A stretch of 64,000 nucleotides of DNA, from assembly GCA_002269645.1 (NCBI GenBank), contig NIVC01001267.1, positions 124,001-188,000 of the forward strand. Reading direction: 5' to 3'. The position numbers were made by a program, and so were the translations under genes. Positions 18,912 to 48,278 of the stretch are shown here, piece by piece (the first letter of the stretch is position 1; each line of letters starts with the position of its first letter). The notes beneath the pieces were generated by a model. It made no database searches. It was given only the letters and a program-made list of their open reading frames with translations, and was not told the origin of the DNA. This DNA is from Macrostomum lignano. Its lineage: Eukaryota.

Positions 18912-18992
18912 TTAGGGTTAGGGTTAAGGTTAGGGTTAGGGTTAGGGTTAGGGTTATTGCGTTAAGATTCGGATTAGGGTTAGGGTTAGGGT
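18912..18992 (+). repeat. Interstitial (TTAGGG)n telomere-like tracts
   Basis: About 7 + 3 copies; more at ~19157-19180. Confidence 0.9.
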
Positions 18993-25571: not shown

Positions 25572-27579
25572 GGGGGGGGGGGGTTTCACAAACTCGAAAT
25601 TTCACAACGTCGAAAGCACCCTCCTTCATAAGGTCGAAATTTCACAAGGTCGAAATTTCACAACATCGAAAACTCGAAAAGCATCCACTTTCACAAGGTC
25701 GAAATTTCACAACATCGAAAACTTTAGCAAGACTTCATAAGGTCGAAATTTCACAACATCGAAAACTCGAAAAGCATCCACTTTCACAAGGTCGAAATTT
25801 CACAACATCGAAAACTTTAGCAAGACTTCATAAGGTCGAAATTTCACAACATCGAAAACTCGAAAAGCATCCACTTTCACAAGGTCGAAATTTTACAATA
25901 TAAAAACTGAGAATTTAGCAGCCACAAGTATGACAAGGTCAAAATTTCACAATGTAGAAAACTAAAGTTTCTATTGTGTCAATGTTTATATTATTATTTT
26001 TTATTTTAATAGCTTATTTGGTTCAACTAGTTTTTAATCACATCTTTAAGTAGTTCAACGTCAAGGAGTGCTGAGTGCTCTTGTAGAAGGGCCTATATTT
26101 TATTCTACGAAATTATTATTATTCTTAAAAGTTAAATTCCCGCCAAATAACAAATACCTTATATTTTTGTTTTAATGCATTAATTTGTTTTAAACGTAGA
26201 AATTTAGTTTTTAGTAAGGCGAAATAATTTTGTTTTAGTTAACTGTTGTTTAAACGCATGATACCCGAACCAATAGAATAAGACTTTGTCTACTATAAAT
26301 ACAAGGCCAAAATAGAACATTTCTTTAACCGTTCGGGTTCATTCTCAGTAACCTAGAAATTAAGATTTCTCTGGTTTTCTGACTTAGTCATTTAAGCAGG
26401 ATTGCGAGTTGTAAATACCGTGTTGGATAGAAAGGGCGTTTTGCCAGTACAGTTAAGCAGGGATTGCCGAACAAGCGTTTTGCTCAGTAAAGAAAGGCGG
26501 ATTGCCCAGTAGAAAGGGAGGATTCCCAAGGAAATAAATTCAGGCTGTTGCAGCTAAGCGTGATGCAGTTCTAAGTCGTGAAAGACAGTATTAAAAGCCG
26601 GAAACCCCTCGGTCTCGGTAACGCTGTGTTTGGACTGTATAGTTTAGGAGTTTAGTAGTAGTCAGCAGTGTCTTGCCACTCGGGCACTGAAGCTACCCAG
26701 GGTAATTCGTATCGACGATAGCCCATAGCGTATAAAGTACATGTAAGTATAAAAGTAGGATTCTTAGAAATAATAGATTCAGTACAATTTAGTGAAATCT
26801 TAAAAGAGAGAAATACATTTCTATAGCAACTTGGTATCAGCTGTGGGATCCAGTAGAATTAGAGAGAAACCCGCCTGCAACAACTTGGTGATTCAGCGGT
26901 GGAATTATAAGCTAGAAAGTAGATTCACCTACGACACTCTGCTAAGTGTCTTATGACTACTGGGATGATGGGTTAGTTTACATAAGTAAGTTTAGCTATA
27001 TAGTTGGGAAGCATTTTGGAATTAGAAGCAGTAAAAAGCACCTAAAATTTGGTATCAGAAGTAGGATAAATTTAGGGGAAAAGAGATAGCCCTATAAAAA
27101 CTTTGGCAATGAATGGGTAGGATAAATTAGACAAAGTGACAAACAGAAAAACACCTACAACATATATAGGCCTACTAATCAACAATAGAAAGAAAAGCCT
27201 CGAAGGCTTACAACTATTATGATTCAACAAAAAAGTGACAATTGAAGACTAAGGCCTAATATTATTGATAAAAATATTGTGAAAGTGAAGTATAGGCCTA
27301 TTTAAAAAAATAAAGAAGTGCATAGCTGAAAAAATATGATTATCCTCTACAAGGTATTTGAAAAAGATAAGACTCTTACTTTTTGAAAGTGGCTGCTATT
27401 TGAGTTTTCGATGTTATGAAATTTCGACCTTATGAAGTCTCTTGCTAAAGTTTTCGATGGTGTGAAATTTCGACCTTGTGAAAGTGGCTGCTATTTGAGT
27501 TTCGACCTTGTGAAATTTCGACCTTGTGCAATAATTTGCTTTTCGACGTTGTGAAATTTCGACCTTGTGAAAGCAACCC
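25572..27579. mobile_element. Nested non-autonomous TIR element with 8-bp TSD and subterminal inverted repeat arrays
   Basis: TSD CTTCAGCA (25564-25571 and 27580-27587). Ends are GGG(TTG)TTTCAC / GTGAAAGCAACCC. GGTCGAAATTTCACAACATCGAAAAC arrays at 25590-25950 are mirrored at 27400-27575. Confidence 0.88.
26410..27160 (+). mobile_element. LTR-like segment followed by several primer-binding-site-like motifs
   Basis: TG-start candidate at 26410. After ...CTATAGCAAC comes TGGTATCAGCTGTGGGAT (26832), and later TGGTATCAGAAGTAGGAT (27050), close to the tRNA-Leu-type PBS TGGTGTCAGAAGTGGGAT. No pol follows. Confidence 0.5.
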
Positions 27580-30557: not shown

Positions 30558-30685
30558 CCATGGATGAAGGAATAGAAATGATCGCTCATCTGAAAGCGAG
30601 TCTATGGCCAAGACTTCCTAAAAATTGGGATATCCTTCCATAAATTTCATTGGCTGCTTGAATTTAATAATACCCCCCCCCCAAT
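30558..30685. repeat. Dispersed repeat family (CATGGATGAAGGAATA...GCTCATCTGAAA..GTCTATGG)
   Basis: Related copies at ~20615-20700 (+), ~22545-22600 (-) and ~43090-43212 (-). Confidence 0.75.
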
Positions 30686-30745
30686 TTCTTAATGGCTGAA
30701 GCTTGTACGCGGGGGAAATTCACGATTAACGCGCATGCTAGGCTG

Positions 30746-31504
30746 TAGTATAGCATTTTGCAGCCCATTGGGGCTTATGCGCATTTAATTTAATCCAAGA
30801 TATGTTTGCCAATGCAACGGAGCTTTTGTCTATGGTAGCAAGGCTGGCACAGCGGCATTTAATTTGGTCCAACAAGCATCAATTTGGTCCAAACCCTCGT
30901 GAGTCATTGGACAAACCCTTGCTTTCTCGCAACCGTATGCAGGTTTTTGCGTACCGCTGGAATGTCAGCGTCTCTATCAACAATTTTCAGTTGCTTTTCC
31001 AGAGCTCTGCTGATAGTCGAAATCTGATAACTAACTGGAACTGTTCCTTCAACTTCTGCTGCATTTCTGCAACGTCAATAAAGGGTTCGTCTCAGCTGCA
31101 TCGAGTAGCACCAGTTGGATTTGCGGCTCTCGAGCAACTTGCCTTGGCGATTGCCACCCTTTCGCAGGCAATCTCTGCTGGCAAAGTTTCAACGCGCTGA
31201 TGGATGCTGTAAACCACCTTTTCTTTTACATTCAGCAACCTTACAATGTCCTTTGGGTGTTCACCTCTGTCAAGTGCTTCGATCACAAGCCAATGACATT
31301 TGTTCAACAGCCTAGCATATGGTCCACAATTCTGGGGCTGAGCTGTAAATGAACCAAATGGACCAAATTGATGCTTGTTGGACCAAAATAACTGCCGATG
31401 TGCCAGCCTTGCTACCATAGACAAAAGCTCCATTACTTTAGCAAACATATCTTAGATTAAATTCAATGCGCGTAAGCCCAAATGGGCTGCAAAAAGCTAT
31501 ACTA
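30746..31504 (-). mobile_element. Tc1/mariner-like deletion derivative with ~150-bp TIRs
   Basis: TAGTATAGCATTTTGCAGCCC...TTTGGTCCA is mirrored at 31360-31504; internal HTH-like remnant (VIEALDRGEHPKDIVRLLNV). Confidence 0.8.
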
Positions 31505-31777: not shown

Positions 31778-33089
31778 TTAGTCCTTGTTTACGAATGTGA
31801 TGGTAACCTTATTAGTGTCACCACAAGCCTCAATCCGCATTAGTTTGTGCGGTGTTCCTTGAACCACAGTAGTTTCACAGAAGTCCGTCCCGGTTGTAGC
31901 AGTACTGCCATCGGGTGTAGTCACAGTTGACATGGTCCTTGTACTGATCTCACGAGTTTGACTGTCGACTTGACCGCATAGAATTGCGCTTACGTTTTTC
32001 TGCTTCGTGATAGATGGCGAGATATAGCGCTCAAGGGCTTTAGAACTGGAATGGCCAGTAACTTTGGCGATGTCACTACGCTCAATTCCAGCCTCATGCA
32101 ACTCCGTGGCGCACATCTTTCGCAGACTTTGGTTGGTAAATCTAGAGCTCCCATTCGGACGAACCAGTGCTACAGCATCCTTCACCAGAGTAGAGAGTGT
32201 ATTCCTTCCAATCGGCGTGGACAGAAACCAAGATTTCCCAATATTTGATGTCCAGTGCTTGTTGGCAGCAAGCAACTTTGCAGTTTTCCGGGCGTAGAGA
32301 TGCATACTTCCGATAGATGCAAACAATACATTTGGTGCAATCCGCTGAATGGAACGCCCTCACCAGTTTTGGTTCCTTGTTCATACCTTTTAAGCCTCCT
32401 TGATTAGTCTTCGTTCTTCGGTTCTCCGCATAAACTAAACACTCATCTACTCCACGCCCTTCAATCCGAATTTCGCGTTCAAATTCCAGGTCCCTCAGTT
32501 CGGATCCACCTCGCAGTCCAAAATTCTTCCCAATCAGCCAGATAGTCGTGCGTACCAACTGCTCCGGAGACTCGACACCTAGAACGCCGTCTGACCACAG
32601 GTCCTCTTCAATGGTTGTCGACACGGGCTCTGCCTTCCTCAATCCAGCGCCCTTGCCCTCCGCAGTAGAAATCTTCATGGCCGCGTCCAAAGCCTTTCTG
32701 CTCTTTTCGAACTCGATGTCCGTCCAGATGCACCACTGACGGCGATACACATGGCGCATGTGGTACTGTATTGACGAAAAGAAATCCTTTAATGTCCCAG
32801 CGGAGTAGCGATCGTTCCTCTTTGTCCTGACCTCCAGAATGAAACTTATTAGAAAGTTCAAATCGGACTTCGAGAACTCATCTGCGTCTTTCAGTACCAT
32901 GAGCGCGGGTCCACCGTCGGAACACCAGAGTACTTTCTTCGCCGCATGCCACTCTTGGAAAGTAGCAAACATCCAGCGACATTTCTTTAGCGTGTTCGTT
33001 GGAACCTTTTCTTCGATTAGTGAACTGACTTCTTCGTCAGTCAGATTGACAAATCTTTCGGTAGCCATTTTAACTATACTGTCCGTCAA
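31778..33089 (-). pseudogene. Crypton (DUF3504-type) tyrosine recombinase, one frameshift near 32300
   Basis: N-terminus RFVNLTDEEV..KVPTNTLKK..W; catalytic box LIGKNFGLRGGSELRDL; TKTNQGGLK; W..STPIGRNTL; FTNQSLRKMCATEL..IAKVTGHSS..LERY. Confidence 0.92.
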
Positions 33090-33339
33090 AAGTTCCGGAA
33101 CCCTTGCTACGATGTCTTCTAGCGGACATAATTTCAGTCCGTTTCAATTGTAACTTGATTCAAATGAAAGCTGCGGATCTCAGCTCCATTATGTGGTCAA
33201 GAAAAAGTTTATTCGAAGGAGCGCGTGTGAACAGGCCAGTGTTATGTACATAAAGGTTAGAGAAAAAAAGTGAGGAAAAGACAAACAAGCAATTGTCTAT
33301 GGTTGCTGAGTCTATGGAGCAAACACACAGGGCTATTTA

Positions 33340-34432
33340 CACACTTGCTGCCGGCACACAAAAAAAGATGGCGTCCTGAATTTAAACGGAAGAGTAATTC
33401 TCAATAGCGAGTCGCGCCGCCCTGTGCACGAATTACAGCTTCGCAGCGACTGCGCATCGAGTGGATGATGCGGCGCACCAGGTCTTGAGGAATCGCAGCC
33501 CATTCTTCGGCAATCGCTGGGGCCAACGCTGCGATATTAGGAATATTTCGCCTGGCCAGTCGTCTGCCCAGCTCATCCCAGATATGTTCTATCGGGTTCA
33601 AATCCGGGCTGTTGGCCGGCCAGTTCATGTGCACATACTGCACATGTGTGTCATGAAACTGCTGCACAATAGCACATCTGTGTGGCGTCGCATTGTCGTC
33701 CTGCAGCAGGAACCCCTGACCAACGCTCGCCAGCCCAAAGGGAACCGCAACATCACGTAGAACTGCTACGTACCTTGCGCCCGTCATGGTGCCGTCAATC
33801 ACTTCGACGAAGGACAGGTGGTTCCATGATGCTGCAGCCCAGACCATCACCGACCCGCCACTGCCACCGCGCCTCGATACCCACTGCACTGCGTCCTGTT
33901 GCTCGTAGCAAGAGTTGCGCTGGCGCCACACGCGAATTCTCCCATCATTCTAATGCACACAGAATCTGCTCTCGTCGGTGAACACCACCAGCCGCCACTG
34001 CTGTTGAGCCGACCAAAAGCGATGCTCGTGACACCACTGCAGCCGTGCGGCTCTGTGAGCTGCTGACAGAGCAGGGAACTTTAAACTTCGATAGCTGTCG
34101 AGTCCTGCGGCTCGAAGTCGACGGGAGATGGTGGACTGCGACACCGTGACATGCAAACGGTCGCTCAAATTTCTCTGCAATGTCGGCAGGCTCACGAAAG
34201 GGTCATTCCTGGCAATGTTTGCAACGAAGTTATTGCTGGCTGCATCCATCACACGAGGCCGTCCTGATTTCGGCAAGTTGTCAACAAAGCCACTGGTCGC
34301 AAATTTGGACGCGTAACGCTGCACAGTCGTCAGTGGCACGTCAAGATGAGCAGCGATTCGTTTCAGCGACCATCCGGCATCCTGTCGTAACGTCACAATT
34401 CTCCACCGCGTCTCAGTGCTAACAACCGGCAT
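33340..34432 (-). mobile_element. Tc1-family transposon, transposase with a single in-frame TAG; D-35-E spacing
   Basis: ORF 33950-34432 (HTH, VVFTDESRF) is in frame with 33401-33931 (QDDNATPH..WPANSPDLNPIEHIW). A TA-flanked end is likely at 33340; no matching 5' TIR was found. Confidence 0.92.
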
Positions 34433-34800
34433 TTTGCTAAGCTGGCTTGTTGACGTAGACCCTGTTTTTTACTCTCCCATGAAAGCTGACTGCACAAGAA
34501 TCCATAAGAGCCTGTTGATCAGGCTCCCATAAGCGCCTCAGTGCAGCCTTGCCAAGTCTCCAAATTTCATCAGCACGTCGACCACATGTGTCTGCATCAG
34601 TTAATTGCAGACGCAGTGCTAATTGGCGCACAGGGGTGTACTGAATACACTAGCGCTTATGGAAAAAATCCGGACTTCTGGCAGAACCGTCGAATATCTC
34701 GACGGTCCGGAGGGCTGGCGACTTGATTCTTGTTTGAGAAGGTGCGCAACAAAAAGTTAGCCATATCATTTGGCTTTCACGGCGGTAAACAGGCCGGATA

Positions 34801-34950
34801 ACTGCGGCAAAGCGCTATACATTGGTAACATATGAGTGCGGCAAAGCGGAGATAGAAGTGCGCAGAACTGCGGCAAAGCGCTATACATTGGTAACATATG
34901 AGTGCGGCAAAGCGGAGATAGAAGTGCGCAGAACTGCGGCAAAGCGGATA
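34801..34950 (+). repeat. 66-bp tandem repeat (2.3 copies) carrying five GCGGCAAAGCG motifs
   Basis: Unit starts at 34801, 34867 and 34933. Confidence 0.92.
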
Positions 34951-35397
34951 AAAACGGCAACTATAGAAGGAATTGTAAATATATACGTGGCAGAAATTTG
35001 GCAGCTAGTAAGTTAGGTAGCACAATTCACTGTTGGTGCCTAGCACAATGTCTATAAAAGTAGATATATATAGCTATGGGGAAGTTTCATTTGTTGCTAT
35101 ATCTGGCTAGCCTGTGTAGTATACGAGACATGCCTATCGCCTAATTAATCTATCAAATTGTTGTTAAAATAAAGCGGAGAAAACGGAGAACAGAGCATGG
35201 GCATAATAAAAGTGGCACAATATATATATATTAGACAAGCATTACAGGATTCAGTTTTCAGTTTACATTATTGCATTAACTATAACAATTTGTAGCAATT
35301 TAGCTAATCCAGGTAGCGCGCTTGCAGCATCAACTATGGCTATATAGTTATATATAGGCGGCGGCAAAACAATTATTACGACAAAGGGTCGCGCAAG

Positions 35398-35434
35398 AAA
35401 TTGTGCTTGGCACCTCCGGTGCCAGGCACAATTT
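35398..35434. other. 17-bp-arm hairpin AAATTGTGCTTGGCACC-TCC-GGTGCCAGGCACAATTT
   Basis: One G-T mismatch; the stem extends with GCGC/GCGC. It shares its core with the 15-bp inverted pair at 35035-35049 and 42788-42802. Confidence 0.9.
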
Positions 35435-35557
35435 CAAGCGCGCCCTAGATATAAATAATTGACAACTGATTGATTGAAATTTTTCTACCTGTCGCATTTC
35501 GACACAGAGGTCTGTTGCTTCTGCTATTGCGCTGCTGCTATTGCGTCACTCTGTCAA

Positions 35558-38306
35558 TTAGCCCCCCCCCCGCTTACATCCGGTGCATCTGGCTGGGCCA
35601 GACGTCGCCGCACTCGACTTCTTTTTCTTCTTCTGCTGCTGCTCCTGCATCAACGATAGCCTGGCTTCGGCGGCCGCTTTGCGCTTTGATTTGCATCGCA
35701 TCAGCTGTACTTCACCGTGCGTTACGGGCTGCGAGAACGACGGCACGAAGCAGACTTCAGTCGGCGTAGTTGCTGTCCTGGCGGCTGGACCGGATGCGGC
35801 ATTGGTGACGGCGGTGCACCTGCGTGTAGCTTTGGCTGCTGGCACGACTGCTGCTGCTGCTGCTGCTGTTGTTTTGCTGGTGGAGGCGGAGGAGGCCTTG
35901 GCAGTCGTCGAGGAGGAGGCGGCTCGCCGCGCGACAAGCTGGTCGACTGTGGCCTGAACATTAGTCCTGGTAACCAGCATGGCATTCGTCGCGTAGTGCC
36001 TCATCATCATAGGCACGGAATTCTCGAAAAGCGCGGCCACCTGATCGGCCATCTCTGGTCGGCCAGCCGCCGCTATGTCCTGCTTTGAGCTGCGAAAGAT
36101 GGTCGGGCAGACTCCGGCTCGACCTAGCAGGTGCTGGGCGTAGGCTGCAACAGAGTGGCTAAACGTCGAGACGGACAGCTTCTCGCCTCGCAGAGTGCAC
36201 AGGACGAACGGCGAGCTAGACACTGCGGGCAAGTCGCCTGCGGCGATGCAACTGCTGCGCCAGGCTAGCAGCAGGTCGATGAACGACGTCGGCAGTGTGA
36301 GGACGCTGCAGCCGACCGAGGCGATCTTCTTGTGGCTCACCTCGCGACCGGGAAGCCGGATGGTCGAATAGCCATTTTCCGCGTTGTCTCGGCGACAGGC
36401 GCTACCCGGCCGGATGTGCGCTACGCGGAGACCGCGCCACGGCCGAACGCGCAGCGGATGCATCGCGGTCGCGTGAAGAGCGAAGCGGTTGCGCATCGCA
36501 GTGAAGCCGGCGGCGCAGCCACGTCCGGCGGGCACGTCGGGGCCGGCGGAGACCAGCTCGGAGTAGTCGTCGAGAATTTTGCGCCACTCAACGGGGGTCA
36601 GCAGTCTGCATTGCTTCTTGTCGTGGTGCAACGGAGCGTCCAGCCGGCGTTCAAAGTCGTGCCGCTGCCTGACTGTTTTCAACCGCTTCTGTAGCAGGTT
36701 GCAACGGCTGTCAAAGTCGGCGGCAATCTCGGGCGGCAGCGCGAGGCGTTCGATTAGCGACTGCAGATGTTGTCGGTCGTGCACGATGTATGCCAACATG
36801 TACTGGGTACACCGAATCAGGGCCTGTGCCCGATTTCTAACCGTGCCAGAACTCTTGCTGGTGGCGCGAATCTCTGCGACGGCTGCTGACGGGTCGGCCA
36901 GACAGAACACCAAGTCCCGCTCGTGGAGGCCAACACCAGCCACCTCTGCCATCTTTGAACAAACGGACAATACGAGTGACAAGGTGTCAATCAGCGCTTC
37001 AGTGTGGCCGTCGTACTCGGGATTGCGGACGCCAGTCGAGTCATCCCAATGGAGCTCTTGCAGAACCTTCAGCTGAGCCAGCAGCGGTGCGTCGATGGGA
37101 TACTGTCGCAAAAGTTCGGAATTGCTGCGCAACTTGATGACGGCCAGAGCATCCCCCGCCGCGATCGCTGCCTTCACGGCCGCCGAGTCGCGGCTGGCAT
37201 TCGCCGCCGAGGCCGCCGAGGCCGCCGAGTCGCAGCTGGCATTCGCCGCCGAGGCCGCCGAGTCGCAGCTGGCATTCGCCGCCGAGGCCGCCGAGTCGCA
37301 GCTGGCATTCGCCGCCGAGGCCGCCGAGTCGCAGCTGGCATTCGCCGCCGAGGCCGCCGAGTCGCAGCTGGCATTCGCCGCCGAGGCCGCCGAGTCGCAG
37401 CTGGCATTCGCCGCCGAGGCCGCCGAGTCGCAGCTGGCATTCGCCGCCGAGGCCGCCGAGTCGCAGCTGGCATTCGCCGCCGAGGCCGCCGAGTCGCAGC
37501 TGGCATTCGCCGCCGAGGCCGCCGAGTCGCAGCTGGCATTCGCCGCCGAGGCCGTCGAGTCGCAGCTGGCATTCGCCGCCGAGTCGCAGCTGGCATCCGC
37601 CGCCGAGTCGCAGCTGGCATCCGCCGCCAAGGCCGCCGAGTCGCGGCTGCTGCTGCTGCTGCCTTTGGCAAGAGGCGCCAAGGAATCGGCTGTATGCAGT
37701 TATGGATGGATGGTGTGCGAAAATGAAGTCACGGGTGAGCTTTTGAAAGCAATGTGCTCCAATTTTAGATTGACAGCGACTCATACCTGCTGGCTTTTTA
37801 GCGTGCTTTGCTGCGTGCTTTGTCGTATCTCTATAAAAGCACTTGCAGTCGGCGCAGTACTGTTCCCGTCGGCGAGCACGATTTGCTGCCTGTTGCTCAA
37901 CAGCCACAGAGTCTGCCGCAGGTCGCAGGGTGGAAAGTCGCCAAAGCCAGGACGTACGCCTTTCCAAAGACCAGCCGTCCTCGTTGGCACTGTCGATATG
38001 CTGTTGCTTGATCCAGTCTTTATGCCGCGCAGCAAAATGCCTCTTCAGCGTGTCTCCACGCATCTGGGCGGTGCAGCCCGGAACAGGGCACTGCTTGGCA
38101 TATTTTTTGTTGCGATCGGTTGCTGCGGCACTCGTGCCTCTGACTGTCGCTGAACCCGCCGCTGCCGCTTCCGCGCCTCTGGCCGACGCCGCCGAACTTG
38201 CCGCTGCCGCTGCCGGGCTGCTGTCCAGCAGGCAAGTCAAAGGGCCGTCGCCATCGCCGCTGCTGGCCAGCGCTGGACTGTCCGCGGCCGCTGCTACTGT
38301 GTACAA
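35558..38306 (-). CDS. C2H2 zinc finger - Ala/Ser repeat - tyrosine recombinase fusion, ~883 aa; exons 38306-37787 and 37689-35558
   Basis: Phase-1 intron G|GTATGA...ACTGCATACAG|CC joins the two ORFs in frame. ZnFs: CPVPGC..TLKRHFAARH and CADC..KHAAKH. YR-like order: RNRF..HPLRVR..GLRVAHI (R), SHKK (K), PTIFR (R), ALFENS, MRHY (Y). Confidence 0.75.
37190..37640 (-). repeat. 33-bp coding minisatellite (DSAASAANASC)n, ~10 copies
   Basis: Frame-preserving repeat inside the recombinase gene. Confidence 0.95.
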
Positions 38307-39847
38307 TGGGTGTTAGATGGCATGGCAACCCATCAATCAATCAATCAAACAATCAATCAATGTAGTGAATAGAGTCTTAAATATCGGATCGGATGACGCA
38401 GTTTCGCCTCACCTCCAATCGATGCTGAAATCATAAATTCGCTGCTACTTGAACTATCGTCTTGGGCCTCTTCCTCGTCGTAGCCGAACAAGAGCCGGAG
38501 GTACTTTCCGAAGGACATCATCAGGCGATGGAATAAATAAAGAAAACGGATTTTGGACCTGATCACTCTTTGCAATTGTTTACAGTGAAAAATGGAAGGG
38601 AAGAGCCATAGACTGTTGACTGACTTTATACAAAGAAGCGAAGAGTTAGCCATCCAAATCCCGGCTATCCCCCCTCCTCATAGACTAATCTCACCGGGCA
38701 TGTACTCTGCTGTTGTCTATGGATTTTTGTTGTCTATGGTTGTATATGTTGACTATCGATTTTTTTGACTGTGTTCCTTAACCCAGCCCCCACCCCCGCA
38801 TGCATCAGTGCCCCACACTCTCTTTCTCCCTCTATCCAAAAAGCAATTTTAGCCAGCCACCCCGATTTTCCTACCCCCGCCCTCTGTAAAGCCGAATGGT
38901 CATAGGGCACTGCATATTATGCAAGGCAAAAGAAAATAATACACGCAACTATTTCTGCTGTTCAATAAAAAGCACCAAAGCGATATAGACGTATTGATGA
39001 ATATATATATATCTACCCCCCCCCCCTAATATAGTAGACAGACATAATATTATAGAGTAAATATCAATGAGAGAATATTGTGGCCCAAATATGTTGCCAA
39101 AAAAGCGCATTTGCCCTGTAGATAGAAAATGTTTTCGACTAAAGATATATAAATTACGGATGCAGCACCATTACTAAGTTGCTCAATAGGAAGCAGCTGA
39201 TCGAGATGGAAAAAAAGCTGTTTGGTTTGGTTTGGTATACAATAGCGAAGAAGCGGCGAAATATTTAAATAACGGTTGCTTAGGCGGCCCCATCTGGCGC
39301 ACAGAAGCGACAAAAAATGCACATCGAACTCCTTAGAAACAAAACCAACACTGCAGTTGCATTCAGCCAGCCAGGCTGAGATCACGTCGATTTCCAAACG
39401 ACGACGAAACAAACTGAAAAACAAACACACACAAACACTGGAACACGAGAACAGGTGTACCTTTCTGCCTGCAGCACAACCTCGGTACCTGCATCGCATC
39501 GCCTCAACAAAGTAGGGGAAGTAAGGGCCAAAGAGAGAGGGAGAGAGAGAGAAGGGGAAAGAGGATAGAAGGGATAGAAGATAGAGAAGAAACAAAGGTA
39601 AGTGTGGGCAATGTGCATCTGACGTGCTGCAGCAGCTCACTAAATTGTTGCAGCAGTACTGCAGCCCCTAACGACTGGCCCACCTCCGCCGCCGGCACAA
39701 TAACGATAATGTCCTCCATCCATCCATCCATCCATCAATCAATCAATCAATCAGTGTTTCTATTCAACAATAGTAGGCTGCTTCGCGTTCTTCTTCTTCT
39801 TCTTCTTCGGCGACGGCGGCGGCATCGTCGGCAAACAGCCGCTCCTG

Positions 39848-42576
39848 CTACTGCGGCGGTGGCGGTGGCGGCGGCGGCATCTGCTGCTGCTGCTGCTGCT
39901 GCACATTTTTCTTCGCCGCCTGCGACGCCGCATCTTGGCGTCCTCTGCCGCTGCGACCTTGACTGGCGTCGCACCCGTCGCAGTCGAACAGATTATGCGG
40001 GATGTGCACGACTGCAGTCATCCTGCGCAAGAAGTCCCGACTGATCTGCCCTGGGGCCGCGTGGCCCGCCACAACAATGGCGTGTGGCCATGGCTCTTTT
40101 TTGTGGCTTTGATATTTCTCATTGATCGTGAACTTATCACGGTTGAACAGTAGCAGCAGTTGACCCGGAATTGGACGGCTGGCATCGAATTCATCGACAA
40201 AAATGCACTTATGCAAGTTAAAGCGCAGCCCGTCGAAAGGAAAACTTGTTGTCAAGTCCGGCACGAACACAGGCTCCCTGCCAAAGTGCAGGTGCACCAT
40301 GGCCGTCTTGCCAACTCCGGAAGGCCCCCACAAATATATTGTGGGCGGCGGCATCTCCCTCTGCATGGCGCGGCACACGGCTATCTGTACGTCGCACAGA
40401 CCGCTGCCCAGGTGCGTCACCACAAGTTCGTCTGGCAGCGGCGGTGGCGGCTGCGGCTGCTGCTGCGACACCCTCTGGCTGCCGCCGTTGCTGCGGCGGC
40501 GACACGCGTCCTCCGACGAAGAAGAAGGACCGGAACAGGCGGCGAAAGTGGCGGCGGCGGCGGCGGCGGCGCTACTACGGAACGACACTGGCGGCCGCTC
40601 GCAGACACCGCACAGTGCCTTCTGCTGCTGGCCGCCGAGCCTGACGAACCCCGAGAGCGCCTCTGCCCTCATCCGACGCAGAAGTTGAATGTTGTTGAAG
40701 TAGTCTAAAGACTGCTTTGTCAACATCGGATTGCCCGCGTTTAGCACGGGGTCGTCAAGATCCGGCTGCACCGCCTCGACCGGATACGACATCGCCCAAC
40801 GATAGAGTACGATGGTGCGCGACAAGCAGCTGTCATCGATATTAATTGTGCAGCATACCGGGTCAAGCGCAGTTATCCGGCGCAGCTCGGCTTCGACGCT
40901 GCGGACGCTCCTGATCTCGACTTGCGTCCAGCGGCGCACAGCAAAGGTGTCCGCGTCGCGGCCTGACGCGAAAATCGGACGCAGCTGCCCGACCAAGTCG
41001 CAATTAGTGTGGAGGACGGCGGTGCGGACAAATGCGTGAATGCTTGACGTCTCCCGACTAACATCGTCGGTCAGGGGCGCATATGGATCGACAATGTGCG
41101 TCTTGGATGGCTCGAACTCATTCTTAGTGACGCCTATTTTTTGACATTGTTTTTTGTGTGTTGATCGTCGAGTTGAGAAATTAGATGCAGAAGAAGAAGA
41201 CGGCGCAATATTATTCAGAAATGGGATGATGCAGAGAGAGAGAGAGGGGGCGGAGGCGCGCGACAGATGAGGATTGTGGGGGAAGAGGGATTATACGATT
41301 ATGGCAGTGTTGCAGTCGTGGCAATTCAATAAATGGCATTGATATATCATTAATTGTGATATTCATATAGTCTATGGCAATAGTTTGGCAAATCAGCGCT
41401 GTCGATCGCGCATAGGAGCTGCACAGAAATGATATAAAAAGAAAAGAACAGCAATGCTTAATAAAGTAAGTAGATAAATAGGAAAGGGCAACAACCCCAC
41501 GCTACTCACTGATGGCCAGTTGAGTCGCCCATTCACTCCAGGCTGACATTAACATCATCTTGAGCGCGCCAGGTTGCTTCACGTAGGCTATCCTGAGCAC
41601 AGACATGCCGCGGTAGGCCCGCCGATTCGCCAGCTGTCCATTGCTGCCTGCAACGGAGGCGTCTACGGCATCCTCGGGGTGCAGCAGAATGCGAGGCACG
41701 AGCAGCCTGGACGTGGTGTCCCGTGTCGGCTGCGGCTGCTGATGATGCTGGTGAGCAGCAGCCGTCTCGTAGGAGGCGGCCGCGGCGCTCCATTCGTCGG
41801 TATATCCGCCGCAGTAATAAGGTGGCGGCGGAGGCGGCGGCGGCGGCGGCGGCGGCGGCGGCTGCGAAGACCGAGTGTCCGACGGGATAGAACAGCCTGT
41901 CGTCAAAGTGGACGATTGGTGGTGGTTGTTGTGAACAATGACAAATAATTTCACAATATGGGTAATGAGCTATGAACTAAAAGTGTAAGGATCGATGGTC
42001 AACAACGAATGCTCAGCAACTGAGCAGCAGCATTCAACGACTCCTACCTGGCGATAGGATCGAACTGCTGCGACTGCAGGGCGACGATGGCAGCGCGTTC
42101 GCCGCCGTTATCGGGCGTTGACAATGGCGCTTTGGCGGTGTCGGCCCTTGTTGCTGCTTAGCGGCGCTTAGCGACGCGGCCGTGCCACTTCGGGATACGA
42201 AGCAGCGACTCGTTATCGCCGGCTTGATGCCAGCTGACCCGATTCTCGGCTGTCGTTTTAGTTCCGGCTTTGCAGCGACTGCAGCCGCTGTCTCCTGATG
42301 ATGCTGCTGCTGACTCTGCTGTTCAGTCTTGAATAATGGCAGGCGACCACTTGCCTCGTCGTCTTCGTCGCTGTCTGGTACGAAGACCCCAGTGATGACG
42401 CAATCAGCCTGCTCATCCGCCGCCTCCAGCGTGAAGAGGTCGGCCTCTAGTGCAGCCCGCTCCGCGTCTTCTTGCCGCTTTGGAACAGTCGATGGGGCCG
42501 CGGCCGCGGCGGCGGCGGCGGCCGCGGCTTCAGCAGCGTCAACCTGCTCGCAGGCTTCCAGGAGGACGGCCGCCAT
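39848..42576 (-). CDS. Rep-like protein with SF3 helicase, ~733 aa; exons 42576-42048, 41896-41510, 41133-39848
   Basis: Two phase-1 introns (G|GTAGGA..GACGACAG|GC and A|GTGAGT..AAAATAG|GC) join the frames without stops. Walker A WGPSGVGKT, Walker B IFVDEF, B' LLLLFNRDKFTINEKY, motif C IVVAGH, Arg finger FLRRM. The true start may lie further upstream. Confidence 0.8.
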
Positions 42577-42779
42577 CTCGTCCGCGGTTGCGTATTGGCT
42601 ATCGCCGGGCCATGGAGGACTTGCATCTTTTATATTTTATTATCGTAATCAGCTGCTCGCTGGCTGCTGGATGCTCGCTGCAGCTAACAACGGTCGGACG
42701 CGCGCGTGGGCAATAATGCAGAAAAAATGAATGAGCAGCCCAGCCGTATACTATAGCTACCGGGTTAATATATATATCT

Positions 42780-42975
42780 CTAGTAAGATTGTGCTAGGCA
42801 CCGCCGCCTCTGCCGCCGCTTTGAGCTTTTTGTCTATGGTCCATCCGCAGCATATATATATCTTTAAAAGAATTGTGCTAGGCACAATCCGCTTTGCCAC
42901 AGTGCGCACTGCATCCGCTTTACCGCATCCGCTTTACCGCATCCGCTGTACCGCAATTGCTAATTGCTTTACCGT
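42780..42975. other. Right-end motif array of the Rep-YR element
   Basis: ATTGTGCTAGGCAC occurs twice (42788, 42872), each preceded by a TATATATATCT box, followed by CCGCTTT(G/A)CC repeats, which are the reverse complement of the left-end motif. Confidence 0.8.
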
Positions 42976-44677
42976 AGCGCAAGATAGCCCGTGTTCTTGA
43001 ATCTCGTGTGCCTGCGTTGCTCCGTTCCGGCGCAGCAAAAAAATTTGGGAAATTCCCCCCCTCTTGGTAGTTCTACTGTTAAGAACTTAGGGGGGGGCTA
43101 TTATTAAATTCAAGCAGCCAATGAAATTCATGGGGGAATATCCCAATTTTTAGGAAGCCTTGGCCATAGACTCGCTTTCAGATGAGCGATCATTTCTATT
43201 CCTCCATCCATGATGCAGTCCCCATTTTAATTATATTGGCTGGGTGAGTCTATAAATATTTACCCCGATTCAACTTTATTGGTTTTCGCTTGAACGCGAG
43301 GGAAGTCTAAATCAGTTCCTTTTAAGTTTTTTTTTCGTGGGAAAGACTAGGAATTTACGACGTATTTATAGTCCCACTAACCCTACAGCCTAAACAGATG
43401 ACTTGCCCATCTAAAAGAATATAAGATCTATGGTTGATTGACACAAGTAGTGTTTTTAAAATCGGTGATACAACCTTTATTGAAGTTTATTTTTTAGATT
43501 TAACTTAAGCTAAACTTAAACAAACAACGAAAAAGAAAAAGTTATTTTCTTATTTTTAAAGATAATTGGGGAACACGCAATGGAAAGTTTTTGATAGGAA
43601 CCAGAATGGGGGTTGTAGCAACTCCATAGTCGACAGCTGTACTCATAAAACGACCATTAAGCAACCACATAGAAAGAGAGGAGCGCAACTTCATTCCGAA
43701 AAACATCTCTGCATCTCTGCTGTGAATGCCAGCGTTGTGAACATGTAAAATGGTACAATTCTGGGGCTGCCAAAAACCGGCTGCAGAATAGACGGTTCGA
43801 TGAGCCCTAGCAGATCTGTAGCCCTGCCGGTGCTACGGTTTAGAATCTTCGGGGCTCCGGCCAGTTTTGTATCGCTGACTCGCCGATCTGGAGACTGCAA
43901 ACGGGCTACGATCGCCGACCGGAGATCTTAAAGGGTGTAAGATCTCCTTTGGAGACTACAAACGGTTATGGGTCCGTTTTGGGATCTCCGGGGCATGATT
44001 GGGTCTCATCTGGAGATCCTAGATTCTGTTGTACCTTCGGAGATTCTGCACCGTTTCCCGATCTCCTTCACGAGTGCAAAAACTAATGTTTGATTTAGAA
44101 TTTCCGGCTACCGATTTACCCAATTTTTAAAGAAATTATAATCTTTCTATTTTGTATAGTATTGTGTATGCGCTTCTCGCTTGGGGTTGTCTTAAGGCGG
44201 CCTGGCAGGTCTTTAAATCTCATGGCTGGCACCTATGTTGTATCTGTGGTTGAGGTTGTGCTAGCACAGGGCTCTTAGGTTGTCTCAGGCTCTCTCTTGC
44301 CAGAAGCCTACTTATCAGTAGCGTTGGTAGTTGCTGTCACCAGTCCCTTCGGATCTCAGCCTTCGGTGAGGTGAAGATCCCGTCGGAACGAAATAACAAA
44401 GACAAGCGAACACAGCACTTCAGGCAGATTAGCGATTTCAGACTAATAGTCAGCAGATCCTGTCGGGCTCAGTGGGTCGGCTGGGAGGACGGTGTTAGCC
44501 TCAGAGCAGAATCAGAGGTCTTAGTTTAGGATGAGAACTGAGTCAGGACAATGGGAGAAATAGGGCAATTGCAGAACTGCGTTTACTGAGAGAGAACAGA
44601 GCTAAAGAAATGACCGAAATGGCCGACCGAACAATTGCGCTGCGGTCAGGCCCGCACTGCCACTCTAACGGACTGCC

Positions 44678-45301
44678 TCATCGCAGGCGCTTGACCTGAC
44701 CCCTCAGACTGCTGCTGCCTGCCCCTCCCGCCTGTTCTGCGAGCGCATGCGCGAAAGGGGCCTCCCTTCTGCGTCTTAATATAAAGAAATGAAGCGAACT
44801 GAACTGAGCTGATCTGAACCAAGGCATGAGGGGGGCTCGCATATATAGAGAGGAAATATTGCACCATCGAAAACAAGACCCCCGCTGCGGGTCATTGATG
44901 GCTCTGTTGCTATTTTTAGCAACTGGCGCACGGGTTTTGTCCAGAGGAGGAAGGGGTCTGGTCTGGGTGCACGTGATTTCCCCCACAAACACGGGCCTAA
45001 CGCACAATGATGAAATGACAGCTGCGCGTCGCCCCGGGTCGTTGTCTATATAATCGAAGATATATTTGACGCACTCGACGATTGCGTCAGCTCGGTTGCG
45101 TGCCGTTCCTAGCTCTCTGACGAGGACCGGACCTCTAGCAGCCTGCCTGGGATCCGTCAACCAGAATGAGTCATCGCGAAAGCCGGCGCTTGGGTTCATT
45201 CTGGCGAACGCCGTCATCTCCAAATTGTACGTCAACTGCCATTCCTTTCGGAAATCAGCGTCCTGCCGGCCGCGAATACCGGTCTCCTCGTCGAAGAACA
45301 T
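44678..45301 (-). CDS. Orphan ORF of unknown function downstream of the second Rep-like copy
   Basis: 207 aa; the first ~110 aa have globular-looking composition; no family recognised. Confidence 0.35.
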   Translation of the reverse strand: MFFDEETGIRGRQDADFRKEWQLTYNLEMTAFARMNPSAGFRDDSFWLTDPRQAARGPVLVRELGTARNRADAIVECVKYIFDYIDNDPGRRAAVISSLCVRPVFVGEITCTQTRPLPPLDKTRAPVAKNSNRAINDPQRGSCFRWCNISSLYMRAPLMPWFRSAQFSSLHFFILRRRREAPFAHALAEQAGGAGSSSLRGQVKRLR

Positions 45302-45717
45302 ATCTTCAATATGGCTAGCTGTTTGGCCACCGCCTTGCCGTAAACCGCGGCGTCCAGTTTGTCTACTGCAGCATTTTGCTGATGCTGCTTAGGCTGACTA
45401 AATGCTGCCGCTTCGAACTCAGTCGCCTCTGCCACCGCCACCGCTTCGACCGTAGCCGCCGCAACCACTGCAGACGCTGCCAAAGATGACGACTTTCGCT
45501 GCTGCTGATGCTGCCGACGCCGTTTGGTTCGGGCGACACTTTCACCGTTGCCGTCGTCAGCAGCAGCTTCGGCCGCATGCAGCTTGCTGTGATAGTCGAC
45601 ATACTATGATAGTCTGCGCAGATGAGGTCAAAACGGGGATGCGCTTGCTCGCGGACAGGCTCAGCAAGACTGTAGCGCCTCGACCACCACTCGGTTCCAC
45701 CCTCCAGTTTCGACTAA

Positions 45718-47323
45718 TCAATCGATGCGTACAGACTGTCTGCCGCTGCGGGTTCTTTTGCAGCGCCCCCTCGACGCGTGTACTTGCTGCAACTCATCGA
45801 AGAATAGACAGCAATGGATACCGAGCTTCAGTCCGTCGAATGGGAAAGTCTCCGATAAGTCGGGAGTGTACACTGTCTCGCGGCCGAAGTGTATTGCGAC
45901 CATAGCGGACTTCCCAACGCCGCTTGGTCCCCAGAGATACAATATAGCCGGAGCTACACGTGCCTGCCGCATTGAGGCGCAAAGCTCGCGCTGGACTGCC
46001 CTGCCGCCACCCAGCACTACGCGGTTCGCGCTAATGTTGCTGCGCGAGGTATCTGCTGCGGCAGCAGCCGCGGTCGATGCCACTACCGGAGGCAGCTTGC
46101 AAACACCGCACAAACTCGGTCGAACCAGGGTGGACGGCAGTGGGCTAATGCCCAACTCCTCGGCCGGTATCTGGTGCATCATCTGCACTGAGGAAAAATA
46201 CTCAAGTCTGTCGCATCAGCAGCGGGTTGCCCACAGACCAACTGTGGATCGTCTGGCCGAGGGGTCACAATGCCCAACGGGAGGACATGGCCCATCTGTA
46301 GAGCACGACGTTGCGAGACAGGCAGCTATCATCGATGTCCATCGTTGCAGCTGCGGGATCGCTCATAGTGACGCGCCTGATCTCAGCCTGGCCGGATCGC
46401 ACACTGCGAATTTCGGCGCGCGTCCAGCCCATCACGGCGAAGGTGTGCTCGCTGGAGCCGGAGCCAAACAGTGCGCTCAGCCGACCGATCAGGTCAAGGG
46501 TGTTGTGCAGCGCGTTGGTGAGAATGAACACCAACAAGGATCTGGTGCCTTTAATTAGGCAAGAAGCAGTCGGGGCGTAAAGATCCATCATAAGCGTGTG
46601 ACGCGACAAAATCATTGTCTGCCAAGCCTATGCATTATTAGATTTACATAAAGAAGCGGCAAAGCGAGTTTTTACTTACCAATCGCAAACTGAGTAGCGT
46701 ATCTCCTTCTCAATGCGCTATCCAGCATCATCTTCATCTGCGAAGCGTTTCGCACATATGCCATCTGGACTATGGACATTGCACGGAAGGCTCGGCGACT
46801 CGCGTCAGCAGTAGCGGTGACACCGGCGGACAGGGGCTCTGCTGGGTGCAGCGGTACGCCCGGTGTCAGGAGCCGCGATGTCGTGCACTTCGGTTGCTAC
46901 GAAACCGGAATAGTCGCCTCGTAGGCAGCCGCAGCCATTGAATAGTCTGCCGGCTTAGCCTTGTCTGTGTTTGGTAATAGTAATTTATACTTTGACAAGT
47001 TGCCATACAGATGTAGCCCATATTTCGCAATACTTAAAGCTATATCACATTCACAAAACAATAGTTCAAAGTCGATTTTGTATTTTATGCATGCATGTAG
47101 ACCTACCGGCGATGGTGGCGGCGGTGGAAGACGATGTTCTCGCTGCTGCTGGCTAACGCCACCTCGGTGAAGAGATGCTTGACGTCGATGGGGATGCCAT
47201 CAGAGGTGATAGTTTAAACGGCAGCGGCCGCTGCGAAGCGATTGGGTGTAACAGTCTTGGCTGCAGCGGCATCCCCGCCTTCTTTATGGTGCTTTGGCCA
47301 ACAACGTCAGTCATTTTTTCCAT
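45718..47323 (-). pseudogene. Divergent paralog of the Rep-like SF3 gene; exons 47323-47107, 46964-46680, 46627-~45718
   Basis: TTSRLL.P..LHP; SRRAFRAMSIVQMAYVR..MKMML..ATQFAI; EIRSVRS..EIRRVT..DP; DIDDSCLSR.VVLYRWAMS; LCGVC..PPV; LYLWGPSGVGKSAMV.IHFGRE..PDL..FPFDGL..FFDEL. Premature stops and frameshifts; homology is lost after Walker B. Confidence 0.88.
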
Positions 47324-48278
47324 TTCAAGACATTTTCCACATAGGAAAGTAGTCTTCGCATAGTAGCTCGCATATTTCGCAGCCGTCGTGCACCATATCA
47401 GGGAAGAAATAGCAAGCGTTGGAAAACACGTGTAAATGTGTTGTCAGTTCATGATTCCGCATTACAATTCTAATAGAGAACTTTTTCTTGCACTTCTTGC
47501 TCAGTAAACAGCACCTTGCTTCTTGCGCTTACTGCCATCCTTTTTTCTCACTATGTAATACAATGCTCCATCGTGGATACTAAAATGTTTGCTCTTACCC
47601 TGATGCGCCTCTTTAAATTGCTTTTCTCTCTAACGTTCAAGAAGACAGGGATTTGTGCGTAGTCATTGCCCAAAATTTTAGTTTCATGCAGTAACCTCCA
47701 TGCAATTGGTGGCCATTCTTTTGAATCAGAATTTATTACACATGTGACGAAGTTGTAGACCTACTTTTCTTTTGCTAATGTTGATGAGTTTGTGTAGCGG
47801 TCTATCAGGATTTACACGTAGTGAAGAAGTAACTGGGCGAATTACAGGGAGCTGTCGAAAATACTGTCGAAAATCTGCGAACCAAATTTAAAACGTTTTA
47901 GTAGTAATTTGAAGTTGTAGTAAAAGATCTTAAAGATTCAAAGAACTTAATCTACTTAACGTGTCAAACAATACGTGCAGATGTACAATTAAATAGAATA
48001 CTTAAATACCAATAATGACATGTACTTTGTAAAGGCTTCACAACGACGGCTCACAAAACGATCTACAAAAGCTCACACCGTCACACACAGATGGCTTCTC
48101 TTTATAACTACAAAACGGATAAAACCATAAATTTTAATAAAAGGACCAATAAAACGGATGAAAACGAGAAAGCTTGATTCATTTTGCAGTAGCCACGACT
48201 CGTATCAGTGGAGTGAGTCAGTGATAAGTTCTGTCAGAATAAATAAATTATCTAATTGAATGTGCAACCATGCAAAGT

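Follow-up and report, generated by a model that had tools for sequence, protein, structure and literature searches.

Cryptons and Starships are eukaryotic transposons based on a tyrosine recombinase. Cryptons have terminal direct repeats of 4-6 bp and a proposed circular intermediate (PMC3212892, in part); the word helicase occurs nowhere in that paper. In the portions of PMC3212892 and PMC10104507 cited here, the circular intermediate of both groups is proposed rather than shown, and no means of raising copy number is known for either. In bacteria, elements of the Rel_PF01719-PF00910 and Rel_PF02407 types carry an SF3-helicase Rep beside a tyrosine integrase, as set out in parts of PMC6668415 and PMC5357655. 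Papillomavirus E1 and polyomavirus large T combine an inactivated HUH domain with an SF3 helicase (PMC6668415, in part). Among the titles and openings of abstracts listed for openly searchable literature outside Repbase, none describes a eukaryotic capsid-less element that joins a tyrosine recombinase to a CRESS-type helicase. Here, a locus with probably this combination is described in a 64,000-nucleotide stretch of Macrostomum lignano DNA (the window).

The element and its insertion site

An earlier note on this DNA described a single gene, a spliced zinc-finger and recombinase fusion. This gene is one of two in a mobile DNA element of about 8.2 kb located inside a high-copy repeat. The element, its borders and a decayed relative are as follows.

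34763..42984, minus strand: whole element, 8,222 bp between the direct repeats, with two genes, both on the minus strand
34758..34762, no strand: left TAGCC direct-repeat copy, predicted crossover core, at the 34757/42985 joint of all four runs
42985..42989, no strand: right TAGCC direct-repeat copy, at the same 34757/42985 joint
44978..46884, minus strand: decayed relative, Rep-like gene then recombinase, with stops and frameshifts, ending after the core-binding part

Contigs of all four public runs contain a joint from 34757 directly to 42985, with a five-letter overlap that fits either side. The insertion thus defined is 8,227 bp long, is flanked by the 5-bp direct repeat TAGCC and lies inside a very high-copy repeat, the empty form of the site retaining a single TAGCC. 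Seven of the 15 joints listed (of 134) span 8,227-8,319 bases, from 34730-34759 to 42981-43059. In run X7 the two bins with the ends reach a summed contig depth, which is not a copy number, of 328,844 and 34,117, as compared to 88-841 in the 15 bins between them. Other copies of the repeat, rather than an empty allele of the studied locus, are the probable source of the empty-site joints. At a single locus, a recombination core and a 5-bp target-site duplication are not distinguishable from TAGCC alone. No circle junction is present among the 15 joints listed of the 134.

The outermost ends agree at only 5 of 30 positions, so that a terminal inverted repeat is absent; short direct repeats of 4-6 bp (here TAGCC) without terminal inverted repeats are also the arrangement of Cryptons. 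The two genes account for every long frame between the ends and none of these matched a capsid family; likewise, no capsid, polymerase, reverse transcriptase or DDE gene was found there. DDE elements surround the element in the window.

The same two genes occur in the same order in a second, diverged copy, the decayed relative, 2 kb from the element. Identity ranges from 28 to 53% (28% over 116 aa with E 6e-12; 53%).

The probable recombinase gene

The recombinase gene consists of three predicted exons encoding a 915-aa product.

38413..38518, minus strand: exon 1 with the start ATG, predicted
38297..38412, minus strand: intron of 116 nt, GT-AG, GC 0.41, predicted
37787..38296, minus strand: exon 2, with two C2H2-like motifs at about 38090-38022 and 37856-37803
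37690..37786, minus strand: intron of 97 nt, GT-AG, predicted
35558..37689, minus strand: exon 3, encoding the linker, a helical core-binding-like domain, the catalytic domain and a low-complexity basic tail
37212..37583, minus strand: in-frame 33-bp tandem array, 11.3 copies, 99% match, encoding AASAANASCDS
35960..36520, minus strand: predicted tyrosine-recombinase catalytic domain, with R619 (36451), K659 (36331), R738 (36094), N762 and Y771 (35995)

The 97-nt intron proposed earlier, 37786-37690, is retained as a prediction: it joins the zinc-finger frame in phase to the frame of 713 codons, has GT-AG borders, shows a dip in GC (0.43 vs. 0.61 and 0.65 in the adjoining exons), and its donor CAG/GTATGA is the best of the 21 GT-AG pairs able to restore the frame. 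Since there are 21 such pairs, frame restoration alone is no proof of the intron. No RNA contig of the public runs shows the splice. In runs X16 and X18 the recombinase core is not covered by any contig, and contigs of run X8 cover the recombinase introns unspliced, which says nothing on expression either way. The earlier gene extent to 38306 had to be revised, as there is no ATG at that end and the predicted upstream exon 38518-38413 with its 116-nt intron had been missed.

The repeat linker turned out to be real and in frame, at 37212-37583 with 11.3 copies, and assembled contigs of the public runs break at it. The Ala/Ser array likely serves only as a flexible tether. The two C2H2 zinc fingers of the earlier description hold by pattern only, with spacings C-x4-C-x11-H-x4-H and C-x2-C-x9-H-x3-H; the classical definition (C-x2-4-C-x12-H-x3-5-H plus a Pfam match) does not extend to them, as the spacers are 11 and 9 residues and no zinc-finger Pfam match appears at E<=1. 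Judged from the four ligands present in each, both motifs likely bind zinc. In the second copy, a zinc-finger-like CADYH..YVDYHSKLH was read by eye before an Ala-rich linker; 94-167 of 300 shuffles scored as high, and this chance-level match was not counted.

The probable recombinase core

The core is probably a tyrosine recombinase: each test is weak by itself, and all of them place R619, K659, R738 and Y771 in register. The R...K...R...Y series proposed earlier, with PTIFR and EN at the two substituted boxes, is found in the expected order and spacing (R619, K659, PTIFR738, EN762, Y771), and the catalytic Arg, Lys, Arg and Tyr align with the matching profile columns. A profile of 36 integrases brought box I, the lysine loop and the following helices into register with 6.1 bits, one of 500 shuffles scoring higher. 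With hhalign, PTIFR fell on the HxxR box and FENS..Y on LGH..Y (2 of 150 shuffles higher), and the glocal alignment gave Z 2.7 (4 of 300 shuffles). Overall, the p value of the profile tests is about 0.002-0.02. The ESM Atlas search gave 0.98 with a recognition of 2937, all of the 10 best named matches belonging to one family or clan; the best named cluster was 15% Phage_integrase.

Two AlphaFold models of the recombinase were available, both with pLDDT 38. In the Foldseek search of PDB, ranks 1-13 and 15 among the rows listed were Cre, Tre or XerH with E 0.11-0.86, a set of 14 made up mostly of redundant Cre entries with a best E of 0.11. In VIA, model residue 25 was aligned to Cre residue 174, adjoining the R619/R173 pair, and the comparison with XerH gave Z 3.5 and an rmsd of 4.5 over 89 residues. 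Fold searches with model 1, and BFVD and VIA-wide searches with model 2, returned nothing usable; because the pLDDT is only 38, these failures are no evidence against a recombinase fold. The core-binding-like domain has seven predicted helices at a pLDDT of about 50 and is conserved in the second copy, with no fold match.

Among 1.84 billion representatives a single homolog was found, the JGI/IMG protein P0001 (E 8.8e-4) encoded on a 1,482-bp contig, and R, K, R and Y are conserved in it at 26% identity. P0001 by itself did no better than shuffles in the profile and glocal tests, and hhalign against one single integrase failed. No Pfam or NCBIfam match was obtained for the recombinase, only one unrelated PHROG at E 0.68. 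There were no homologs in two word-index searches, PDB sequences, phages or scans of viral, metagenome and genome contigs, and plasmids yielded only two chance matches. Neither DUF3504, GCR1_C, Phage_integrase nor DUF3435 matched. The DUF3504 Crypton of the window, about 2.4 kb away and not 3 kb as first given, showed no BLASTP match at E<=10, in agreement with the view that the two cores are unlike. A divergent tyrosine recombinase, joined to two zinc-finger-like motifs by a low-complexity linker and unrelated to the Crypton, is thus a description of moderate strength.

The HxxR histidine is replaced by Thr735 (PTIFR738) and the His/Trp before the tyrosine by Asn762 (EN762). Both positions vary, 9 and 5 of the 36 compared integrases, respectively, differing there; in Table 1 of PMC2943603, among the parts used here, the histidine of HxxR is present in 87% and His/Trp in 96%. 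Asn at the His/Trp position is absent from the active Cre substitutions named in those parts. The residue three positions behind the first Arg, usually Glu/Asp, is a Pro in this core.

It is improbable that the core is dead or not a recombinase at all and that the block was inserted by another transposase leaving a 5-bp target-site duplication. The fold evidence is indeed weak test by test, the 5-bp repeat is compatible with either mechanism and DDE elements are all around; however, a terminal inverted repeat and an internal DDE gene are both lacking, R, K, R and Y are conserved against the 26%-identical homolog, and the frame is intact over 713 codons.

Motif arrays, AT tracts and the hairpin

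Several repeated motifs are concentrated near the two ends.

34804..34946, plus strand: left subterminal array, five copies of GCGGCAAAGCG, predicted arm-type recombinase or zinc-finger sites
42890..42954, minus strand: right subterminal array, four copies of GCGGYAAAGCG, inverted relative to the left array
35036..35049, minus strand: ATTGTGCTWGGCAC motif adjoining an (AT)n tract, predicted origin or Rep site
42768..42888, plus strand: two units of (AT)n tract plus ATTGTGCTAGGCAC, inverted relative to the left-end unit
35387..35445, no strand: hairpin with 28-nt arms and a 3-nt loop, made of two ATTGTGCTWGGCAC motifs

The array motif has 10 matches in the window vs. 1.96 expected, nine of them in the two end arrays, and none of 100 shuffles reached 10. 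The (AT)n-associated motif has six matches vs. 1.09 expected, all within the element. Origins of papillomaviruses and polyomaviruses have palindromic sites beside AT tracts, as does the element. The hairpin is significant (z -7.4, 0 of 200 shuffles), and one contig of run X8 skips 35369-35427, across it.

In the earlier note this hairpin was taken as terminal, and altered chemistry of a resolvase or telomere-resolvase kind, acting on terminal hairpins, was suggested as a speculation. The strength of the hairpin, the skipping contig and the presence of TelK in the Foldseek list (rank 48, E 2.5) speak for such a resolvase in a linear element. A protelomerase site would be a palindrome forming the hairpin ends of a linear replicon; yet the hairpin is internal, beginning 625 bp inside the left end and 113 nt beyond the recombinase stop codon, and the element is integrated between direct repeats. 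Moreover, Cre and XerH rank far above TelK, no second recombinase is available for integration, and the losses of both histidines have precedents. Neither the terminal position nor the altered chemistry was borne out, and a telomere resolvase now appears highly improbable.

The Rep-like helicase gene

The second gene lies upstream on the same strand.

42048..42630, minus strand: exon 1, acidic, low-complexity, with an approximate 5' end
41897..42047, minus strand: intron of 151 nt, predicted; contigs of two studies stop at 42047
41510..41896, minus strand: exon 2, a Pro/Gln run followed by the beginning of the conserved N-terminal domain
41134..41509, minus strand: intron, predicted; the decayed relative has a 61-nt intron in the same place and phase
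39848..41133, minus strand: exon 3, the remainder of the N-terminal alpha/beta domain, then a CxxC motif and the SF3 helicase
about 40366-39980, minus strand: SF3 helicase with Walker A GPSGVGKT, FDG, Walker B VDEFD, motif C and RR finger

The ends of the element and this Rep-type gene, the more interesting part of the locus, had been missed in the earlier note. The 5' end of exon 1 is approximate because all four runs carry a one-base indel relative to the window nearby. Contigs from runs X16 and X18 stop at 42047 and then continue with 59 other letters, and a contig of run X16 guessed to be RNA ends at 41510. Exon 2 has 47% identity to the decayed relative.

By its sequence, the gene encodes a CRESS-type SF3 helicase. 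The ESM Atlas gave 0.94-0.95 to Cressdnaviricota Rep clusters, and a profile of 60 CRESS Reps scored 40.5 bits against the helicase (best of 300 shuffles 1.0), a value somewhat inflated because these Reps were chosen with a pattern resembling the Walker A region of the helicase. Two of the searches found no homologs of the helicase; two further ones gave 6 and 16 loci with little matching beyond Walker A, among them L001, which over residues 7-102 is a picorna-like SF3 helicase. Other searches with the gene returned weak ATPase matches only, and a single, unrelated match came from scanning viral contigs by motif for a linking Rep family.

No intact HUH nicking motifs were found in the N-terminal domain by profile and threading tests, which performed at chance: with 60 CRESS Reps, retained from 121 loci, 304 of 500 shuffles reached the observed score, and 10 geminivirus-type Reps (10 of 122 loci after filtering) gave no match either. 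In a putative register read by eye, one His stands in the candidate for motif II (in the second copy, none), and both copies have Arg in place of Tyr in the candidate for motif III. Position and these eye-read motifs suggest that the domain may have a HUH/origin-binding fold.

A copy-out, paste-in route seems unlikely. It would exchange only one strand at the ends, the helicase would peel this strand off and a single-stranded circle would be formed while the donor is kept, the recombinase replacing the lost HUH nickase. A CRESS-type helicase without recognisable nicking motifs does stand beside a recombinase without both histidines, and strand-biased circularisation and a recombinase-related relaxase are bacterial precedents (PMC9345347, PMC8152469, both in part). 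However, there is no sign of strand bias in the data, both histidine losses are found in annotated bacterial integrases, and the inverted arrays are paired at both ends, as in two-ended recombination.

An endogenous virus or viral segment also has little probability. In this reading the helicase and recombinase would serve a DNA virus for replication and integration, its capsid genes having disappeared or being carried by a separate molecule. The helicase is of viral type, and according to parts of PMC11296320 polinton-like viruses join a tyrosine recombinase and an SF3 helicase in a possibly mobile end module. This reading is opposed by the defined ends of an 8.2-kb element with only two genes, which the second copy shares, by predicted spliceosomal introns in both genes and by the lack of a relative in IMG/VR; the polinton-like helicases are D5 primase-helicases, not CRESS-type.

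Proposed mechanism and significance

We lean, with modest confidence, towards an element combining a tyrosine recombinase and a CRESS-type SF3 helicase that excises as a circle, is copied with help of the helicase and re-integrates. The recombinase would bind both ends, the zinc fingers assisting on the inverted GCGGYAAAGCG arrays, and recombination of the two TAGCC cores would free an 8,227-bp double-stranded circle, as proposed for Cryptons. Circularisation would unite the left and right units of ATTGTGCTWGGCAC plus AT tract and the hairpin in one non-coding region. The Rep-like protein may bind this region through its probably non-nicking N-terminal domain, the SF3 helicase unwinding the DNA and host polymerases copying the circle, as with papillomavirus E1 and polyomavirus large T. 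The recombinase would then insert the circle at a core-bearing site, for which an abundant repeat would offer many harmless targets.

We tentatively suggest that the two copies may be founding members of an undescribed group of eukaryotic transposons: capsid-less integrative plasmids residing in high-copy repeats, with a new tyrosine-recombinase lineage and a Rep of CRESS descent in which an origin-binding domain has arisen from the nickase, so that the E1/large T step would have been repeated independently. If true, the bacterial elements with a Rep and an integrase would have a counterpart in eukaryotes, the way in which E1/large-T replication arose might have a present-day parallel, and a new site-specific recombinase that works in eukaryotic nuclei would become available. 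Since the ends are exact, the recombinase frame looks intact, the element has a replicative helicase and many DNA and RNA runs of the host are public, the circle and its replication can be tested directly.

Comparison with known systems

Among known systems, Cryptons, which lack a helicase, and the bacterial elements with a Rep and an integrase come nearest. Cryptons (Goodwin 2003; Kojima and Jurka 2011) share with the element a eukaryotic host, a tyrosine recombinase, introns and the lack of terminal inverted repeats. The recombinase differs in matching neither DUF3504/GCR1_C nor the neighbouring Crypton, in its N-terminal zinc-finger-like motifs and in the absence of both histidines; furthermore, a CRESS-type helicase gene is added within the ends, so that the recombinase is not the sole mobility enzyme. 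Starships are likewise eukaryotic, with a divergent tyrosine recombinase and short direct repeats matching the target, but they are fungal and giant, have the DUF3435 captain first, and no core replication helicase is described for them in the parts of PMC10104507 cited; the element has no DUF3435 match.

Replitrons and Helitrons are also eukaryotic DNA transposons based on a Rep-related protein. As portions of PMC10288648 describe them, they have an active HUH transposase and no recombinase, Replitrons lacking a helicase and Helitrons having one of the SF1B type, whereas the element has an SF3 helicase and a separate recombinase-like gene and belongs to neither. Polinton-like viruses resemble it in bringing a tyrosine recombinase and an SF3 helicase together in one eukaryotic integrating element (PMC11296320, in part). 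In contrast to them, no capsid, packaging ATPase, protease or primase was found in its 8.2 kb, the helicase is CRESS- and not D5-type, and long terminal inverted repeats are absent.

Bacterial pCRESS integrated plasmids and Rep-type integrative mobilizable elements share the capsid-less state and site-specific integration between direct repeats (parts of PMC6668415 and PMC5357655). The element differs from these Rep and integrase elements by its eukaryotic host and spliceosomal introns, with no coupling protein, excisionase or intact HUH motifs found. The likeness to E1 and large T lies in an SF3 helicase preceded by an N-terminal domain that lacks recognisable HUH catalytic motifs. The viruses that encode E1 and large T have a capsid and no integrase, while the helicase of the element resembles the CRESS Reps.

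Ends of the Element and Target Site

The element is an integrating recombinase-plus-Rep element in all likelihood. Contigs from four public runs were aligned to 33000-48000, and seven of the 15 joints listed (there are 119 more) skip the whole block, omitting 8,227-8,319 bases. The joint 34757 to 42985 occurs in all four runs, and five letters at it fit either side. This overlap defines the direct repeat:

34758-34762 and 42985-42989: direct repeat TAGCC on the two sides of the element

The element sits in a very high-copy repeat immediately upstream of the Tc1-like transposase frame 33401-34468. The contig depth of one run (X7) is 328,844 in the target bin vs. 88-841 within the element, and the empty-site joints probably derive from other copies of the target repeat. 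One contig of another run (X16) continues 64 letters past 42986 into sequence outside the aligned region, which hints weakly at a second flank. GCGCAA stands shortly ahead of TAGCC in both the target (34745-34772) and the right end (42975-43000).

The very ends of the element form no terminal inverted repeat (5/30 positions match). Further in, each end carries an array of GCGGYAAAGCG, the two inverted relative to each other, with five copies on the left and four on the right (10 matches across the window vs. 1.96 expected). Inward of these arrays, ATTGTGCTWGGCAC has six matches, all within the element, vs. 1.09 expected, and adjoins (AT)n tracts. Two ATTGTGCTWGGCAC motifs build a hairpin (z -7.4) that begins 625 bp inside the left end; it is internal, not terminal as in the earlier note's speculation about a recombinase substrate. 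One contig of run X8 skips 59 bases across this hairpin (35369-35427), between short AATTGT repeats, which may reflect a deleted variant, slippage or an artefact of the library.

Other repeats were observed in the window:

8131-8667, minus strand: rve integrase fragment
18907-19180: short, interstitial TTAGGG-like runs
24343-25631, plus strand: P-element-like transposase (THAP, Tnp_P_element)
30559-30692 and 43079-43212: inverted pair of copies of another repeat
30746-31504: small element, 146-nt inverted arms enclosing an HTH frame
31778-33143, minus strand: DUF3504/Phage_integrase Crypton, divided into two frames by a frameshift
33401-34468, minus strand: Tc1-like transposase, its HTH part separated from its DDE part by an in-frame stop

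The window contains 36 CCATAGAC/GTCTATGG motifs, some of them close to the Crypton on either side. In three of the four runs, contigs connect 33295 with 34471, which shows that the Tc1-like element also exists in a high-copy form with an internal deletion. The introns, the TTAGGG runs and the Tc1, P-element and DUF3504 Crypton content suggest that the host is a eukaryote rich in repeats, probably an invertebrate animal.

A Second Copy and the Rep-like Gene

44978-46884: decayed relative, two genes in the order of the element, with stops and frameshifts

Since gene content and order agree between the relative and the element, the two genes are no chance neighbourhood: the element belongs to a family, of which this genome has at least two diverged lineages. 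Database searches beyond this genome returned only P0001, the sole database homolog of the recombinase. The ends of the relative were not found within the window. Other repeats of high contig depth (44600-45050) cut it just after the core-binding part, and the end-array motif GCGGCAAAGCG occurs once, without mismatch, in its intron (46656-46666).

Three frames upstream of the recombinase gene are predicted to splice into one Rep-like gene. In two studies that are presumably RNA, contigs end at donor 42047 and then run on into 59 other letters; one contig from these studies ends at 41510. In the second copy, an intron occupies the corresponding position in the same phase. By its sequence, the C-terminal domain of the product is a CRESS-type SF3 helicase. 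In ESM Atlas it scores 0.94-0.95 to Cressdnaviricota Rep clusters, with two unnamed clusters higher (0.96). A profile of 60 CRESS Reps, selected by a Walker A pattern, scores it at 40.5 bits (best of 300 shuffles, 1.0), the alignment covering Walker A, Walker B, motif C and the Arg finger. The preceding domain, 45-53% identical between the two copies, occupies the position of the HUH nuclease of Reps, and profile tests detected no HUH in it. Read by eye in a tentative register, candidate motif II shows no more than one His, and in candidate motif III Arg replaces Tyr in both copies.

The Probable Recombinase Gene

In the open frame (37699-35558, minus strand, 713 codons), no Met precedes codon 250, yet the block kept in the second copy already begins at codon 213; translation must therefore enter the frame through a splice:

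37786-37690, minus strand: predicted intron, 97 nt, in phase
Between the upstream exon and exon 2: predicted upstream intron, 116 nt
38518-38413: predicted upstream exon with ATG (product 915 aa)

The 97-nt intron has the best donor among 21 frame-restoring GT-AG pairs and a GC content of 0.43 vs. 0.61-0.65 in the exons; the contigs of the public runs examined gave no RNA support for either intron. Of the spliced fusion proposed previously, the in-phase intron stands, whereas its start, 38306, has no ATG and a further exon is predicted. The 33-bp repeat linker is a real array, in frame with the gene. The two zinc fingers each have four plausible ligands, but their spacers are short and neither motif has a zinc-finger Pfam match.

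Identity and Chemistry of the Core

The core was described as a divergent tyrosine recombinase. No curated family matched it, and both AlphaFold models of the recombinase are poor (pLDDT 38). In ESM Atlas the core scores 0.98, at recognition 2937. The best of the named clusters is 15% Phage_integrase, and the ten best named hits belong to one family or clan. Foldseek of the core model against 350,542 PDB chains returned nothing at E<=0.001; among the matches listed, Cre, Tre or XerH take the first 14 places (E 0.11-0.86, entries largely redundant) and TelK ranks 48th. A second look with VIA gave XerH a Z of 3.5 and paired Cre residue 174 with model residue 25, and VIA-wide and BFVD fold searches with the core model found nothing.

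Against a profile built from 36 bacterial integrases (the distinct ones among 41 loci), box I, the Lys loop and the helices that follow align in register, with 1 of 500 shuffles higher. Hhalign pairs the HxxR box with PTIFR and LGH..Y with FENS..Y (2/150 shuffles higher), and the glocal alignment has a Z of 2.7 (4/300 higher). P0001, 26% identical to the recombinase, keeps R619, K659, R738 and Y771; taken alone, it scores no better than shuffles. Several weak tests, different in kind, agree on a tyrosine recombinase, with R619, K659, R738 and Y771 in register, and we consider this fold very likely.

The substitutions probably do not signal a different chemistry, a possibility raised speculatively in the earlier note. 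In the available text of PMC2943603, every substitution of Cre His289 recombines except five (Asp, Glu, Lys, Arg, Trp), and that of PMC8138268 describes whole subgroups with weaker His conservation. In the comparison set, 9 of the 36 integrases are without the corresponding His, and two carry Asn at the position of N762 (L023, above the Pfam cut-off, and L030, an annotated integrase). The former (L023:1468-2595, on a 156-kb viral contig) shows PYQMR where HxxR is usual and CGNS..Y where GH..Y is, and is a natural case of double-histidine loss. Asn is absent from the active substitutions of Cre Trp315 named in that part of PMC2943603, and Pro replaces Glu/Asp after the first Arg of the core, so slower or altered kinetics are possible.

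Proposed Mode of Propagation

The data show the insertion and its direct repeat, the end motifs, the gene content and the SF3 helicase, and from them we propose a cycle. The recombinase would excise an 8,227-bp circle, its fingers sitting on the arm-like arrays. The joined ends would bring the motif-plus-AT units together as an origin, onto which a non-nicking origin-binding domain would load the helicase, host polymerases then copying the circle. E1 and large T would be the model; their HUH domains are inactivated according to the available text of PMC6668415. The circle would re-integrate at a site bearing the core. At the predicted circle junction, a possible weak inverted repeat, GATA/TATC, flanks the core. 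The main rival, one-strand copy-out with the recombinase acting as a nickase, seems unlikely; the full cycle of excision, copying and re-integration is slightly favoured.

Comparison with Known Systems

In the freely accessible journal literature searched, no description of a recombinase paired with a CRESS-type helicase in eukaryotes was found; the available part of PMC11071296 names a recombinase solely for a virus that has a capsid and a primase-SF2 helicase. The gene is probably the recombinase of an undescribed two-gene integrating element. Going by the accessible portions of the sources cited here, the ends of the element behave like those of Cryptons, but its recombinase clade and gene content set it apart from them (PMC3212892). 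It also differs from polinton-like viruses (PMC11296320), Replitrons and Helitrons (PMC10288648) and Starships (PMC10104507). Bacterial Rep-plus-integrase elements are similar in build, whereas the present element is eukaryotic and spliced (PMC5357655, PMC6668415). We tentatively suggest that it could represent a new group of eukaryotic transposons.
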